A DNA stretch of 53,185 nt, filler included, from Diploschistes diacapsis (lineage: Eukaryota): NCBI GenBank assembly GCA_023645945.1. It is 4 parts of 4 records of this genome, joined end to end, with 100 filler letters (N's around TTAATTAATTAA, not from the genome) between each part and the next. Parts side by side here need not be neighbours in the genome. Positions count along the whole stretch, not along the records: positions 13,334 to 26,561 come from JALAIB010000678.1; 3 more parts are not named here. One strand, 5' to 3'. The notes beneath the pieces are model-generated. The model was not told the DNA's origin. It searched no databases and saw only the letters and a program-made list of their open reading frames with translations. Position numbers and translations under genes: made by a program. Shown piece by piece: positions 5,240 to 38,200 of this stretch (its first letter is position 1; every line of letters begins with the position of its first letter).

Positions 5240-5334
5240 CGACTAGGACAAGACTCGAACTTGCGCGGCCTAAGCCATCACCTTGACTACGATAGAATAG
5301 CAGGGTGACCCATTAACCACTCTGGCACTTAGTC
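5240..5334 (-). tRNA. tRNA-Ser(GCT) with 14-nt intron
   Basis: Reverse complement folds as a cloverleaf: acceptor GACTAAG/CCTAGTC, D-loop with TGG, anticodon stem TCACC/GGTGA, loop CT-GCT-A then intron TTCTATCGTAGTCA, long variable arm, T-arm GCAAG-TTCGAGT-CTTGT, discriminator G and a downstream T-run. Confidence 0.93.
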
Positions 5335-10369: not shown

Positions 10370-11042
10370 CTAGTGACCGCCAGTCCTCCTCGACTCAGCA
10401 ATCACTCGTTGAAGATCGTCGACCTTTCTCTTCGCACGGCCAAAGGTTCCGAGCTGTTGTACAGAGCCCCGTTAACAATGAATTGGAAGAAGGAAGATGA
10501 CAGGACATACCCGCTTCTTCGCTAGTCGACGCGCTCTCTTGTCCTTGCTGTTTCGGAGCAACTCGATAACGCGGCGCTCATACTCGAGAGGTTCAGATGT
10601 CGAATCAGACGGTCTTGAATTGGCTACTTACTGGGGCGAGACCCTGGAGAGAAGCAAGTCAGTACCAGAGTCAGATCAATCCCACGAATGAGTTGCGCAT
10701 GCGAAATTTCTTCGTCGAATCACGAGAATTATCCGCCTCCTCCAAAAGTAGTGATTTCCAGCTCATCATAGTCCATACCGAAGCGCTAAGCGCGTTGTTC
10801 CGCTCTCTCCTCTCCCCAATGTCTTCGCCTAAACCCCCCTCCCCCCTGTATATCCAGAAACAGAAAAAGAAATGAAACAAACTCACCGCAACCTCCTTAA
10901 CAATCTCCCTCACGAACGCCGTCCGCTTCGAAATCCTCCCCTTGCTCCGCGAAATCCGGGGCTTGCGGTCGCGTAAAGTCGTCTGGTAGCCCTTGTTCAT
11001 GCCACGGGCTATGCCCGTACGGTCGGGTTTCGTGCCTGCCAT
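10370..11042 (-). CDS. RPL36: 60S ribosomal protein L36 (eL36), 3 introns including a 12-nt microexon
   Basis: Exons 11042-10887, 10643-10632, 10582-10511 and 10453-10370 give ...SKRTAFVREIVKEVA|GLAP|YERRVIELLRNSKDKRARRLAKKR|LGTFGRAKRKV... Confidence 0.96.
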
Positions 11043-14921: not shown

Positions 14922-15779
14922 TCACATATCAGTGCGTCCCAAACGCATTGGTCTAATTGTTGGAATCGGGATTGTATATTATACCTTGAGCTGCGATTGA
15001 GTGTGACTTGGATGTTTGGATGTTTCGCAATACATTTCCTGTGGCAAGCTTAACGCCCAATCTTACACGATCGTTCAGATTAGACCAGCGCTGGCCTTCC
15101 TGATAAAACTTCCTAGCAGATATGCACGCAGGTGGGCTTACATTGTTACACCATTCGCCATAGTCTCTGAGACCCGGCTGGCGTGTGCTGAAAAGGTTAT
15201 CTTCAGCTGCATAAGCCGATAATCTACCGAGCTGAGCCTGACTTCGGTCTTGAGGATTGGCTACGCCGCGGAGCTGCTTTGAGCTGCTTCCTCTACAGGC
15301 CTGAACGCGGGCCTCAAGTATGTTTTACATTGCTGACCAGCGTACATGGGCCTCTCTGTCTATTGGGTCGTCGATGAATTAAACTGCCGGATCATTGTTT
15401 GCGATTTGTCAATGCCCGAGTGCTTTCGTTTCTTTGTAGGTCCCGCTCCCTAGGGTATCCACGGCCTTCATTGTAAGTATGCTTTTCGTTGATGAGTCTT
15501 CTGTCTTTGCATTACCTTGACGATGATAGAGTTGAACCTCCACTGCCTTAAAAGAGCCAGTATAACTGATAGAATGACTGGAGCCAAACAGAGTCGCTAA
15601 AATTACCAATCGGAGCTAGCCTATCCTGTCTCAGCCCTGTTTTATCTTATAGCACCCACTCAATAACAAATTCAGTACTGCAATTTCGCAAACATCAAAC
15701 TCGAAGCATAGAGCTGTCATCACTTTACCGCAACGCTAAGTTCGAGTCTTGACAGCCAAAGCTCTTCTTACTTCTCACG

Positions 15780-17039
15780 ATGTCTTATCAGAAGGGCGAG
15801 AAGGATTTCGGCGAGCAGCCTGTATGTATCTTACCCTTGTCCCAGTCTTGAAGATGAGACTTACTAATTGCGGTTCAATAGAAAGCTCATCGCATACGAA
15901 TTACCCTCACCAGTCGCAATGTCAAGTCTCTTGAGAAGGTCTGCTCCGAGCTGATCGAAAGGGCTCGGTCCAAAGACCTGCATGTAAAGGGGCCAGTCCG
16001 TCTTCCGGTACGAGATAACCCCTCTTGCTGCTCCGCAAAACATCGGAATCCGAGCGCGATAGGAAAGATGTAGGAAGTGTGCATGAGCCTTGGGCCTGCG
16101 AAGCGCAAAGCAGATGGCGCGCGGACTCTTGCTGCTTCCTGCTGAAAGCGTACTGCTGCGCCGACGTCTAGTACATCCATTGCAAGCACAGTGCAGAGAG
16201 CTCTAAAGAACGGATCTATTCGTGGAACCCAACCTCTCTTTTCAGCAAATGCCGCCTTTTTGCATCCTGAGCGCAGAAGTTTTGTTGCTCTTGCCTTTCC
16301 TTACATCTACTCATTTTCTTGGATGTTCCTCTGTGGACTATACAATGCTAACATTCGGTACAGACAAAGAGGCTCACCATCACGACTCGCAAGGCAAGTA
16401 TATTGTTCACTTCCCTAGAACATATCACTAGTCCGGCGAAATTCTCCGGCCACCAGTTCAAAGCTTTTCAGAAACGTCTAAGCGATCTGATTAACTTTGT
16501 TCTACTGGAAACAGTGACGCAGTCTCCTTTTATTTTACCACCCCTTCTTTCACCCTAGCTAACTAAGTCGGCAACCAGACACCGTGTGGTGAAGATAAGT
16601 TACCCTCCTCCTCCTCCTCCTCCTCCTCCTTCTTCTTCTTCCAAAGACCCGGATGTTGCAGTCCCACTTCTAGAGTTGAATCATTTAAGCTGACGTTAAC
16701 TGTACGCAGCAAAACGTGGGATACCTTCGAGCTTCGCATCCACAAAAGACTCATTGAGTATTCCCCCTCTCTTTTCTTTCTCACCCAGTGTCGCATGACC
16801 GAGATCCATGGAGTGAACCACGGGCTTCTTGAATCTGTGTTAAATGCATATTATGTGAGAGGCCCTTGGCTGAGTGTATGCTGACTGGCATGCTATCTAG
16901 TCTGCGCGCTCCAACGGAAGTTGTGAAGTCAATAATAGTCAATAGTAGGCTTCTTCCAATTGATTTAGCCATTTGCAGTCATGACTTACAGTTTTTAGTC
17001 GAAGCTGGGGTGGAGGTCGAGGTAACTATCGCGGCTTGA
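15780..17039 (+). CDS. RPS20: 40S ribosomal protein S20 (uS10), 6 introns including GC-AG and AT-AC
   Basis: Exons 15780-15821, 15882-16007, 16364-16393, 16579-16594, 16706-16757, 16901-16944 and 16999-17039 total 351 nt (116 aa): [19 protein letters not shown]...[40 protein letters not shown]...[10 protein letters not shown]. Confidence 0.95.
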
Positions 17040-18005
17040 TCACCTCTTTCGCTTGCCGAATGGTCACCACATGGTTGCGGAGTTTGAATGCAAGGCACAA
17101 ATGGGCCGAGATTTCATGTATGACCAGCTTGATTCAGAATGCTACCGAAAGATGCTTTAGATCGAAAGTCAATTAAATGTGCTCCCCAATGGGGACGTTA
17201 ATTATCATGAAACGAGTCCCTTTCTATTAGATACTGTCTCCTGAACCAGGATGTTGGGGCTGGAGGCATACAGATGTGTTGATGATGTGTCACATGTGAT
17301 AAGCCAGCCCAGAGAAACTCTGTCTACGAAGCAATGGGTAAATCGTATGCTACTAATGCAAACTAGGAAGAAGTCGATCCACTATCCTCATTCTATAAGC
17401 GCATCAGGCAATATGGTCTGGGATGGGAATTCTTCTCGCGTGCAACGGTAGGGAATTACGCAAGGTAGAAAGGATAAACAGCGACACCCTGATGGGCGCT
17501 GGGACTCGAGATCGGCTATTGCACACATGTGTTTTTATGAAGAAAAGAGAGACACCCCTAAGGTGAAGGGAATATGGTGTTAAAAAAAAGAGAATAGCTC
17601 ACACATCTCAGAAGGTTTGCACAGGGTCTCATGCTACCAGATGAGCTTTCTTGAGCGGCCAGCAAGGGGAACAAAAAGCAGAGCCTACTACTTGTTCTCG
17701 ATAACACTAAACTGAGAAATAAACCCTCTGTTTGCCACTTTCAGTGGTACGGTCAACATAGGCTAAGTCTGTTGGAAGTGGAACATCAGTGCACTTCAGG
17801 CCAGTCAAGTAACGGCCGAGGGGAACTTCACTTCAAGGATAACCAACGATAATTAGAATGCCAAGCGACTCTAAGGAATATAAAAAGGCTGACTGTGTTG
17901 GAGGGTGCCTACAACAATCCAGTGACGAGGTAGTGGGAAAGGTTAGTAGAAGAAAGGACCGCTATCTCCCGAAATCGGTTCATGTTGAACCTATAAAACA
18001 ACAGC

Positions 18006-33545: not shown

Positions 33546-35290
33546 GGTCGGATGTAAAATAGCCCAGATATGCGTGAACAATAAGCTAGCAGCAGGTATT
33601 GGCTGCTGCATCTGATCTATTCATTATCATCCACCTGACAACAAGAGTTGAAAGAATAATAGAGCCATGCATCGTAGCTCGCCGTTCTAGGGAAGTGAGC
33701 AGCATAATGTTGAGCGTTTCCCTTGTTTATTTTCACCGTTTCGTAACGACGACGTCGATAAGATAAGTATTCACGTTCAAACTGAAAGTTGGTGCTGGGC
33801 CCGGAACCTGCACCGTCCTGTCAGCACTTGAAATAGCTAGCTTCGAGTTCGTTTGAACCTTCAAGCAAGCCGAATCGCAGGAATGTGTTACGTAGCTTGT
33901 ATCGATATCACATGCGCCATCCTAGACAGTGACGAGGAGGAAGAAACGGATAACGCACCTGTAGGCTTTGTGAATTTGTCAAACACTCTCGTACATTTAG
34001 TCCCACATACGTACATGCATGGAGTACTGTACTGCGTACTGCGCCAAAACCCTCTCTGTGCCTAGTTCACCCAAGGGACAACCGTGAGATGTGTGTGTGA
34101 CCTCACCTCCCTTGCTGGAGTGGGTATACTACTACTGTACTCTGACCGCGTTGGAAAAAAAGTCGATTTTTTTCAAGCGCAGCTGTCACACGCAAATAGC
34201 GGCAAGACAAAAAGAAAATTCCTTCATGAGAGGAAATCAACGTGCGTCGATTGTTGAGAAGTCTATGTCTAATTTCCCATCCGCATGTAACGCAGTCTAA
34301 CTGATTCCTTTCGTCCAGGAGGCAAGGCATTCATCGCTGACAGTCACACCAAGTAAAGCATCTTACATCTCCGATCCTCAGAGGCACATCAACTCCAATC
34401 ACCAGGCCTTGTCCGCACTTGTTCTCTAGCTCCCCCTTAGCTCTCTGCTGGCGTAACACCGTTGCCAACGGCATCCCATCATCACCGCCCTATGGCTAGA
34501 GACTAGAGCTAGAGCTAGACCGTGGGACTGGAGTCCCCTCACCAGTCCACCAAACGGTCTGGAGACTACAATACTGACTGCTTCTACCTCTCGGCTGATG
34601 CTCTATTACCTCAGGGCGCATCAGGCGGCAAATGCAAAAAACAAATAAAAAAGCATTCCCTGAGCTCCAGCGTGAGCAAAACTCCATTGACCGTGTGGCG
34701 TTGGCAGCCATGGCATGGGATCCCCCGATTCACCCCAAAACGGGCTCATCTTGGGCCAGCCTTTCCACTCCATGCAGCTGACACTGCCTTAGAGTAAATT
34801 GGCAGATGCTTTGCAGATACCCCTCTAGCACCTTCCGCAGCTTCGGGGAACGGGCGGACCGCTGCTGCAGCATGGCCCCCTGTGCTGCTTGAGAGATACA
34901 GCACGGCGCTCTAAAGAAACGGGGCCTGTTGCCTGATTATCTACCGACACCTCGCCGAGCCGTGAAGACACTCACCTATCCTAAGCAGCTTCTTTTGGAT
35001 CGTCAAAAGTTCGGCATGCATACGTCCGTATGGGCAATTGTCGTTTTGGTCTACTCTGCAAATGCTTTCGATATCTGCGCTGTATCTGTTGAGTCATGCT
35101 GCCCAATGGATCCTCCATGTGTGTGGGGGGGGAGGGGGGTTCCAGGGCGTGATGGAGTGGTATTCGGAGTGATATTCTCGGTCGTCGTGGTTTCCGAAAA
35201 CCTGCGTATCTATATAAGATATGTGACTTTCTTGAATATGCACGCCGTGGCTTTATTTTTAGCTTTGCCTTGTTTCTCCTAATCTGCAAG

Positions 35291-38200
35291 ATGGGCTCAA
35301 TCACGGTTTCCAAGGAAGGACACAAGGTCTTTGATATACGCCAGTCCGAAATCAAGTCCTTCATTCTCGAAGAAATCCAGAAGCAGCTGCATCCTGCAGG
35401 TGGGGCAGAGAAGCAGTTGCCAACACTGCTACTGTACGACGAGAGGGGGTTGAAGCTCTTCGAAGACATTACCTACCTCGAGGAATACTACCTCACCAGC
35501 GTTGAGCTAGGACTCCTCGATCGTTTCGCTAGGCGTATCGCAGAGCGTATTCCGAGTGGAGTTCAATTAATCGAGCTCGGCAGCGGGTGAGAATTCCTCC
35601 TCACTTTTCTCCTTCCCCTCTACCGGACCCTTTGGCCTAGCCCGCACACTGCTTGGCGGCGTAGAACACCATGAAAGAGGAGTCGCTAATGGTGAGGCAT
35701 AGTAATCTACGTAAGACAAATTTACTGCTGAAGGCGCTTGACGAATCCGGCAAGGATGTTGACTACTACGCTCTCGATCTGTCTTTGTCGGAACTGGACC
35801 GAACCCTTAGTGCAAATCCTCCGGGCACGTTTCGGCATTTAAAGTGCTACGGCCTATATGGAACATACGACGACGGACTTGAGTGGCTGAAGTTGCCACG
35901 CAATAGGTTTAGGCCAAAGGTGGTTATGTCGATGGGATCGTCCATTGGGAACATGGAACGCCAGCAGGGCGCCACGTTCCTGAGATCCTTCGCTAGCCTG
36001 CTGCAACCTAGCGACATGATGCTTGTGGGTGTGGACGGCTGTCTCGACAAACAGAAAGTCTACCCTGCCTACAATGATAAGGAAGGTGTCACTCATGAAT
36101 TTTATCGCAATGGGCTGCGCCATGCTAATACGGTCCTTGGTTTCGACTTATTTAAGCAGGACGACTGGGAGATTGTGGGGGAGTTCGATGAGCACTATGG
36201 ACGCCACCAGGCGTTCGTCTCCCCCAGGAAGGATGTGGACTCCCACGGATTTTCATTTGTGGCCGGCGAGCGCATCCGGCTCGAGAATTCATACAAATAC
36301 TCCAGGGCCCAAAGGTCGACGTTGTGGAGTGAATCTGGGCTAACGCTCAAGGTATCGTATGCGGACAAACTAAGCCACTACTGTAAGTGGGCCGAACATT
36401 TCCTGCATCGCCTGCATCGTCGTTCCCAGTCCCCTGTGCTTTTCCTTTTTTTAAATTTTTTATTTGTCCGTCGGCTATCGCGCTCTAGGGCGGTCGGGTT
36501 CTTGCTCTGGGAACTAGGGAAGCAGGTAACGGGAAACTGTAACCGACGGTTGCTTGAGCAGCAAACATTCACATTCTTTTGTCTCGGCGTCAATTTGAGA
36601 TGCAATACGCTTGTCTGACGTAGTACGCCGCCTTGCTTCTAGGCTGTGTGCTTCTGTCTTTTTATTTCTCGTTTCCTCATAAGTATCACCGAGGGAGCCC
36701 ATAGTTGCTGACCTGCTTCTTCCCTACAGCCCTCAACCTTCTCTCACCTCCCATCATGGCCCTCTCTCTCGACCCCAGTGTATATGTGGCTACTCCTATC
36801 CCAAGCCTTGAAGATTTTCGCCAGCTATGGAAGACTTGGGATTTCGTGTCTCAGGAGATGCTGCCGCACGAAGAATTGCTCTCCAAACCCATAAATCTAC
36901 GGAACTGTTGTCTGTTCTATCTAGGCCACATACCGGCCTTCTTTGACATACATCTGACAAGAGCGACTTGCGGCGAGCCTACTGCGCCAGCCTCCTATCA
37001 CCAGATGTTCGAGAGAGGCATTGATCCGGATGTTGACAACCCCGAGCGCTGCCATGCTCACAGCGAGCTCCCTAAAGAATGGCCGTCTGCCAAAGAGTTG
37101 TTGAACTACCAGGTCAATGTACGTGAGCGAGCCGTTGCATTGTACGAGAATGGAATGGTGGATGAAAACAAGGCTGTCGGCAAAGCGATGTGGTTGGGCT
37201 TTGAGCATGAAGGTCAGCATTGTTCTGCGAATAATATCTTTTTAATAACCTCTCAAAGCCATGCATATCGAAACCTTTCTTTATATGCTACTACAGAGCG
37301 ACAAGATTCTTCCTCCCCCTGGCGCTAGACCAGATTTCGAAGCTCTCGCACACGAAGCACGATTTAACTCCTCACCGAATAAGTGGATAAGCATACCGAA
37401 TAGGACAATCACGATCGGTTTGGATGAGAAGAAGGATGGTTTCTGGGGGTGGGACAACGAGAAGCCAGTACGGACAGCCACCGTTCCTCCATTCGAAGCT
37501 AAAGCGCGACCTCTGACAAATGGTGACTATGCGAAATATCTTGCCGAGTCAGGCAAAGATTTGATTCCGAAGTCGTGGATAGTAGAGCCATCAAATAACC
37601 ACAGGGAAGATGACGGCTCAGTGATCAACGGACACGCGGATTTTGCTCACAGTGATTTTTTTAGCTGCAAGTTTGTCCGGACATTGTACGGCCCGGTGCC
37701 CCTGATATTGGCTCTCGATTGGGCTGTTGTGGGCTCGTACGATGAGCTGGCTTCTTGTGCAGATTGGTTTGGTGGTCGCATTCCTACAATGAAGGAGGCG
37801 CGAAGCATGTATGCGCACGCAGAAGAGCTGAAAGCAAAGGCCAGCCGTCACGTCCATGCCACTCCCGACAGGCCCGAACCTGCAAAGTCAGCGGCGCCAA
37901 ATCAACTTCATACCGACCTGCATGGCTGCAATGTGTCCTTTGCGAACTTCCATCCTTTGCCCGTTATGTTAGGGACAGAGGAGCTGGCTGGTTTGTCAGG
38001 ACTTGGGGGCGTCTGGGAGTGGACTAGTACGCCCTTGGAGAAGCACGATGGGTTCGAAGCCATGGAGGAGTACCCTGCGTATACTGGTTAGCTATATCCT
38101 CGATAGGCGCTACTCTTTACTGATACGAAGCAGCCGATTTCTTTGATGGCAAGCACAACATTGTCCTTGGCGGGTCCTGGGCTACACATTCGAGGATAGC

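Follow-up and report, generated by a model that had tools for sequence, protein, structure and literature searches.

A probable U2-type AT-AC intron in the uS10/RPS20 gene of the lichen fungus Diploschistes diacapsis

Identifying the terminal dinucleotides of the fourth intron in the gene for ribosomal protein uS10 (RPS20) of Diploschistes diacapsis raises a question about the splicing of this lichen ascomycete: is the intron an ordinary GT-AG intron, or does it have AT as its first and AC as its last two bases and still belong to the major (U2-dependent) spliceosome? A preliminary description of the 53,185-nt stretch of DNA analysed here (hereafter the window) had proposed the latter, a natural U2-type AT-AC intron. 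Here, we argue that positions 16595-16705 most likely form such an intron, with the exact junction and the dependence on U2 being what we infer from the DNA. Judged by its best protein matches, the host is an ascomycete of the class Lecanoromycetes: the best named matches of TYW1 are Lecanoromycetes (Thelotrema lepadinum at 69% identity, then Trapelia and Xylographa), and the best named match of uS10 is Gomphillus americanus.

The gene model on which the question rests has seven exons and six introns, given below with a slash at the splice site.

15780-17039, plus strand: uS10/RPS20 coding region, 7 exons, spliced translation of 116 aa, stop codon TGA
15780-15821, plus strand: exon 1
Intron 1: GTATGT..AG, 60 nt
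15882-16007, plus strand: exon 2, with the match to Pfam PF00338 (Ribosomal_S10)
16008-16363, plus strand: intron 2, GTACGA..AG, 356 nt
16364-16393, plus strand: exon 3
16394-16578, plus strand: intron 3, aag/GCAAGT...AACCAG, 185 nt, CTAAC branch site
16579-16594, plus strand: exon 4, a microexon of 16 nt with the sequence ACACCGTGTGGTGAAG, which codes for T P C G E and the first base of Gly
16595-16705, plus strand: intron 4 in the favoured reading, ATAAGT...TGTAC, 111 nt, phase 1 within the Gly codon of GEG/S
16706-16757, plus strand: exon 5, (G)GC AGC AAA ACG TGG ... CTC ATT GA
Intron 5: GTATTC..AG, 143 nt
16901-16944, plus strand: exon 6
Intron 6: GTAGGC..AG, 54 nt
16999-17039, plus strand: exon 7, with the stop codon TGA

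Exon 2 matches the PF00338 profile (E = 1e-06; 29.4 bits, the cut-off being 21.2), and the read-through translation of exon 5 matches its positions 50-68. Homology searches returned 1437 homologues at E <= 0.001; the named ones among the matches listed are 40S S20 proteins from Pezizomycotina and other eukaryotes, and the best hits listed are 81-95% identical to exon 2. The 116-aa model equals many named S20 proteins in length and resembles its homologues from end to end, with 7/7 exons intact and candidate branch-site and 3'-end signals in 6/6 introns. At 356 nt, intron 2 (16008-16363) is exceptionally long for RPS20, and its central part is rich in G+C; Rfam searches of it detected neither a snoRNA nor any other family. 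Rfam searches of the whole RPS20 gene region gave nothing credible, the one hit (E = 0.41) being far below the cut-off.

The sequence around intron 4 agrees with what had been reported. Exon 4 ends in TGT GGT GAA G (16579-16594), ATAAGT follows at 16595-16600, the dinucleotides AT (16595-16596) and AC (16704-16705) enclose 111 nt, and exon 5 starts with GC AGC AAA ACG TGG from 16706. Spliced translation after excision of 16595-16705 likewise reproduced the TPCGEGSKTW loop and the 116-aa protein, and the reported GCTGAC branch point, its A lying 12 nt before the intron end, was located as well. The signals are as follows.

16595-16600, plus strand: 5' splice site aag/ATAAGT, 8/9 positions as in the U2 consensus AAG/GTAAGT, the mismatch being at +1 only
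16604-16630, plus strand: (CCT)9 microsatellite, followed by CTT repeats
16689-16694, plus strand: candidate branch site GCTGAC (CTRAC type), with A16693 lying 12 nt before 16705 and 16 nt before 16709

The donor is thus ATAAGTTA and not ATATCC. RPS20 intron 5 also has GCTGAC, and in the AT-AC reading the branch A of intron 4, 12 nt from the intron end, falls inside the fungal peak of 11-14 nt given in PMC4324775. At the 3' end, positions 16700-16705 read CTGTAC, in the terminal context TAC/gca. An AAC also occurs at 16698-16700, between the branch site and the TAC (7 nt from the branch A, and with A at -3); that it would need skipping speaks against the AT-AC reading.

How many other junctions would serve the protein equally well? 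The preliminary description held that the only in-frame GT-AG alternative deletes CGEGS, which is incorrect. Enumerating all in-frame, stop-free excisions with GT-AG, GC-AG or AT-AC ends, we found 18, two of which preserve the normal loop length: the AT-AC excision 16595-16705 and a GT-AG excision shifted 4 nt downstream.

16599-16709, plus strand: rival GT-AG intron, taa/GTTACC...GTACGCAG/caa, 3' GCAG, 111 nt, in frame, giving TPCGEDNKTW

The GT of this rival makes up +5 and +6 of ATAAGT, its AG is taken from the serine codon AGC, and the protein would read GEDNKTW; GEGSKTW arises from only 1/18 excisions, the AT-AC one. Such an ordinary intron could descend from an ancestral GTAAGT...AG intron that lost its first and last G, after which the next GT and AG were adopted and the two 4-nt shifts cancelled. 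It would take the same two base changes as the AT-AC reading while dispensing with non-canonical chemistry, and it is equal in length (111 nt), in frame and stop-free. Its GCAG/ end is a normal YAG and the first AG past the branch site. The distance to the branch A, 16 nt, is within the range reported for a filamentous fungus (median 15 nt according to PMC4324775). Set against that median and the peak of 11-14 nt from the same source, the two branch distances (12 versus 16 nt) do not discriminate between the registers.

The protein favours the AT-AC register. The shifted GT-AG intron swaps two loop residues: in the 120 best of the 1437 homologues, the loop reads GEGSKTW in 112 and GEGTNT[WF] in 3, the other 5 being cut or misread before it, so that the third residue is G in 115/115 homologues containing the loop, the next residue is only S or T, and D-N occurs in none. 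A metagenome scan of 80 loci, which overlaps with the homologue set in organisms and is not independent of it, gave GEGSK in 75 and GEGTN in 3, with the remaining 2 ending before the loop; G was present in 78/78 loci spanning the loop, and D-N again in none. The donor points the same way. At taa/GTTACC, with T at +3 and C at +5, 4/9 positions fit the consensus, and pairing with U1 would be far better in the ATAAGT register. Among 19 GT donors solved in orthologous loci, a small sample in which several loci duplicate each other, +3 was A in 19/19 and +5 was G in 17 and A in 2; the 8 other donors solved in the window (5 in RPS20, 3 in RPL36) have A or G at +3 in 8/8 and never C at +5. Overall, T at +3 or C at +5 occurred in 0/27 other donors examined, and, to our knowledge, donors of this kind are generally rare in fungi. 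We therefore regard the shifted GT-AG intron as unlikely.

Several observations also weigh against the AT-AC reading. At one orthologous locus (L042), a true GT-AG intron (GTATGC...ATAG) can also be read in frame as AT-AC with a 2-nt shift, turning TTRK into TVRK; AT-AC alternatives to true GT-AG introns can therefore arise by chance, and at L042 it is the GT-AG reading that retains the conserved residue. The U2-type AT-AC class is a very rare one, numbering 24 introns across five species (PMC1557818), and the same source credits the rescue of a first-position A by a last-position C with a lower efficiency, a difficulty for an essential gene with high expression. Because the shifted GT-AG alternative had been overlooked, the case for an AT-AC intron is weaker than first stated. 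The core of the earlier proposal stands as the best reading, with a restored loop, an ATAAGT donor and no U12 donor, while the same-length alternative had escaped it. We favour the AT-AC intron because of the invariant loop glycine, the purifying selection on the protein (see below) and the consensus ATAAGT donor as compared with the poor GTTACC.

Are the decisive bases real, and is the gene under selection? We aligned contigs from three DNA data sets to positions 15700-17100: a lichen metagenome (X1), a data set from another study (X2) and a rock metagenome (X3). In X1, which is probably where the window itself comes from, the contigs match it without a difference up to 16596 and again from 16648, either side of the repeat. 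X2 is about 95-96% alike to the window sequence. One X2 contig, at a depth of 79, covers 16550-16596 with zero differences, and A16595 is therefore independently present; another X2 contig, with a depth of 28, differs at a single, unlisted position within 16554-16596. Near the 3' end, a 1566-nt X2 contig covering 16648-17100 has listed differences at 16692 and 16695 and none listed at 16704-16709, and an X3 contig that begins at 16691 has only 16695 among its listed differences. Among the differences listed, none falls on the terminal AC (16704-16705) in X1, X2 or X3. The earlier argument that the A...C ends are unlikely to be sequencing errors gains support from these contigs: the ends are not errors of one assembly, given A16595 in X2 and no listed change at 16705. 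The rival's GT and AG are likewise unchanged in the X2 contigs among the differences listed, which suits the shifted GT-AG reading equally.

The G>A difference of X2 at 16692 turns CTGAC into CTAAC and keeps the branch consensus, a change that fits a working intron in either register. Within exons, 8/8 listed differences from X2 and X3 are synonymous third-position changes. Because of this, the RPS20 protein is, as judged from these alignments, subject to purifying selection in the very lineage with the A...C state, and the two residue swaps of the shifted GT-AG reading would stand out against exonic changes that are otherwise silent.

The same evidence bears on the fate of the transcript. If the 111 nt were mostly retained, or if several junctions were used, the product would be a 153-aa protein with a 37-aa loop insert or a mixture of isoforms. 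Intron 4 is indeed free of stops, as the preliminary description had noted, and a multiple of 3 in length, and the lower efficiency of the A1 rescue by a last-position C (PMC1557818) would also favour retention. A stop-free length divisible by three is not a rare property, since about a tenth of annotated fungal introns share it according to PMC7072748. The insert would be of low complexity, with (CCT)9 read as Ser/Phe runs, and would sit in the middle of an invariant loop; the full set of splice signals is present, and the branch consensus is kept in X2. No protein match to the read-through ORF across intron 4 (16567-16881) was found at E <= 0.001 among 9 candidates. Predominant retention, or a mixture of junctions, is in our view improbable.

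Intron 4 has a non-canonical neighbour. Intron 3 is a GC-AG intron, with a GC donor that is otherwise of strong consensus (aag/GCAAGT) and an AG acceptor, and its donor repeats the last 5 exon bases (GCAAG/GCAAG). TTRK/TPCGE is obtained only via this GC junction, as no GT donor yields it, and X2 shows no change from the window at 16394-16399 among the differences listed. Introns 3 (GC-AG) and 4 (AT-AC) thus flank the 16-nt microexon. Two adjacent non-canonical introns in one gene are suspicious, and could indicate that the window holds a decaying or silent copy, with another RPS20 gene supplying the protein. A decaying copy would not be expected to show 8/8 synonymous exonic differences among those listed, and neither the 7/7 intact exons and the homology of the 116-aa product over its whole length nor the branch-site and 3'-end signals of 6/6 introns suit a silent one. 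This explanation is less probable still than retention.

Both introns appear to be confined to this lineage. They are absent from 78/78 other loci extending this far into the gene in the 80-locus metagenome scan, including from contigs of up to 157 kb that are clearly genomic, and one locus (L001) lacks them despite the same N-terminus and common positions of introns 1, 2, 5 and 6. The introns with non-canonical ends are therefore precisely the two lineage-specific ones. As to the comparison of intron 4 ends among relatives, which the preliminary description had proposed, X2 and X3 keep the ends among the differences listed, and farther out all 78 loci lack the intron. None of the loci shares flanking genes with the window: tblastn with 7 ORFs of the window gave no hits at E <= 1e-5. 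Other copies of the six RPS20 introns were not found in the window, where only chance matches of 11-15 nt occur, and there is hence no sign of an introner-like repeat within the 53 kb.

We also observed that two uS10 fragments from other organisms, P0041 and P0043, run into non-coding sequence after ...APNGE and ...TTRKT, respectively. These fragments suggest introns within one codon of the intron 4 and intron 3 positions, respectively, in other eukaryotes.

How the A...C state arose is an evolutionary puzzle. If the ancestor was a GT-AG intron, two mutations were needed, each harmful by itself, and either route to the A...C state leads through a harmful stage; birth with AT-AC ends would avoid this. 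We tentatively raise the possibility, in itself doubtful, that introns 3 and 4 are recent lineage-specific gains around the microexon and that intron 4 was born with its AT-AC ends. If it was, new introns in this lichen lineage can start out non-canonical and be dealt with by the major spliceosome from the outset.

AT-AC ends are also known from introns of the minor spliceosome, and a U12-type intron has to be weighed for this reason. The U12 branch consensus is TCCTTAAC, located 10-15 nt from the 3' end. Intron 4 shares with a U12-type intron the terminal AT and AC, and ACGTTAAC near its 3' end fits this consensus at 6/8 positions. ACGTTAAC is the only such element (TTAAC), at about 6 nt from the 3' end and so not properly spaced, and the donor is ATAAGT rather than ATATCC(TT), with no ATATCC U12 donor anywhere within intron 4. 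No snRNA gene was found in the 53-kb window with Rfam, which returned only a tRNA. In PMC2846911, PMC10639083 and PMC11347168, minor introns or minor snRNAs are reported missing in Ascomycota, in agreement with the earlier statement that filamentous ascomycetes do without the U12 spliceosome. A U12-type intron has next to no likelihood here.

Taken together, 16595-16705 would be an intron of the major spliceosome with AT-AC ends, in an expressed and selected uS10/RPS20 gene. U1, and later U6, would pair with aag/ATAAGT as they do with AAG/GTAAGT, and the branch A16693 of GCTGAC would attack A16595. During the second step, C16705 would partner the A at intron position 1, a pair replacing the usual G-G contact, and as a consequence exon ligation would follow TAC and bypass the AG that lies four bases downstream. 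This would yield a normal 116-aa uS10 with the invariant TPCGEGSKTW loop. The chemistry presumed in the preliminary description, in which paired first-A and last-C changes rescue splicing by the major spliceosome, is stated for yeast and human pre-mRNAs in PMC1557818.

Other features of the window provide a context for the short exons of RPS20.

10370-11042, minus strand: RPL36 gene, 107 aa, three canonical GT-AG introns (243, 49 and 57 nt)
10632-10643, minus strand: 12-nt microexon of RPL36, GGTCTCGCCCCA, encoding GLAP, with canonical GT-AG introns
5240-5334, minus strand: tRNA gene, Rfam RF00005, 39 bits, match over 95 nt
35153-38088, plus strand: ORFs encoding, one after another, Methyltransf_33, DinB_2 and FGE-sulfatase domains, split by short introns

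The ribosomal protein genes of this fungus seem to be rich in introns and microexons. The tRNA may contain an intron, as the 95-nt match is longer than the 71-position model. The order Methyltransf_33, DinB_2, FGE-sulfatase is what we take to be the architecture of the fungal ergothioneine synthase Egt1.

How does the RPS20 intron compare with known systems? Rare though it is, the class of U2-type (type II) AT-AC introns is established. The 24 reported in five species by PMC1557818 include 15 in human, 6 in mouse and 3 in fly, and the same source describes the criterion of a 5' splice site that is U2-like apart from +1. ATAAGT is called a very strong consensus of the known U2-type AT-AC introns in PMC5029451. 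For the AT-AC introns of human SCN4A and SCN5A, the need for the major spliceosome has been shown by experiment (PMC1557818). Intron 4 of RPS20 shares with them AT-AC ends on a U2-type 5' splice site, the ATAAGT donor and ends that are kept, among the differences listed, in the relatives X2 and X3. Those introns are animal and experimentally established, whereas RPS20 is an essential ribosomal gene of a lichen ascomycete and is known from DNA.

Engineered introns offer a second comparison. A change of intron G1 to A is rescued by changing the last G to C in yeast and in human pre-mRNAs, less efficiently (PMC1557818), and the two changes are identical to those seen here, likewise on a consensus U2 intron (PMC1557818, PMC5029451). 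These are laboratory constructs with reduced efficiency, while the RPS20 intron would be natural and fixed.

Fungi closer to the host provide further cases. AT-AC II introns were hypothesised in xylanase genes of filamentous fungi (PMC1557818), RNA-seq of Trichoderma longibrachiatum gave AT-AC ends at 69/14305 junctions (PMC4324775), and fungal annotations include AT-AC introns at low frequency (PMC7072748). As in RPS20, the Trichoderma and xylanase introns are AT-AC introns of Pezizomycotina, which are without a minor spliceosome; in contrast to RPS20, with its exact ATAAGT donor and its argument at the protein level, they are, as presented in these sources, aligner counts or hypotheses. A paper on AT-AC introns in lichen fungi was not found among open-access papers and bioRxiv. 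In Saccharomyces cerevisiae, RPL30 has a nested AT-AC intron that yields a side product of 1-2% (PMC5029451). Once more the gene encodes a ribosomal protein, the intron is AT-AC and the ascomycete has no U12; the yeast donor is unlike ATAAGT and the junction a side reaction, whereas the AT-AC junction of RPS20 would be the productive one. With U12-type AT-AC introns, finally, the RPS20 intron shares the terminal dinucleotides only, since it has neither an ATATCC donor nor a properly spaced TCCTTAAC and belongs to a clade without the minor spliceosome.

The practical consequence concerns annotation: predictors that allow only GT-AG or GC-AG introns will misannotate RPS20, with either two changed residues in the invariant loop or a 37-residue insert. 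If confirmed by RNA, the intron would represent a natural, fixed case of first A paired with last C by the major spliceosome, within a clade lacking the minor one, and the AT-AC ends would sit in a highly expressed gene where inefficiency should come at a cost. What is known about splicing itself is left unchanged, and the RPS20 case would add an example to the U2-type AT-AC class and not a new mechanism. Noteworthy features of intron 4, among the known systems, are a donor that equals the consensus, a position within an essential gene, a seemingly young age and an adjacent GC-AG intron.
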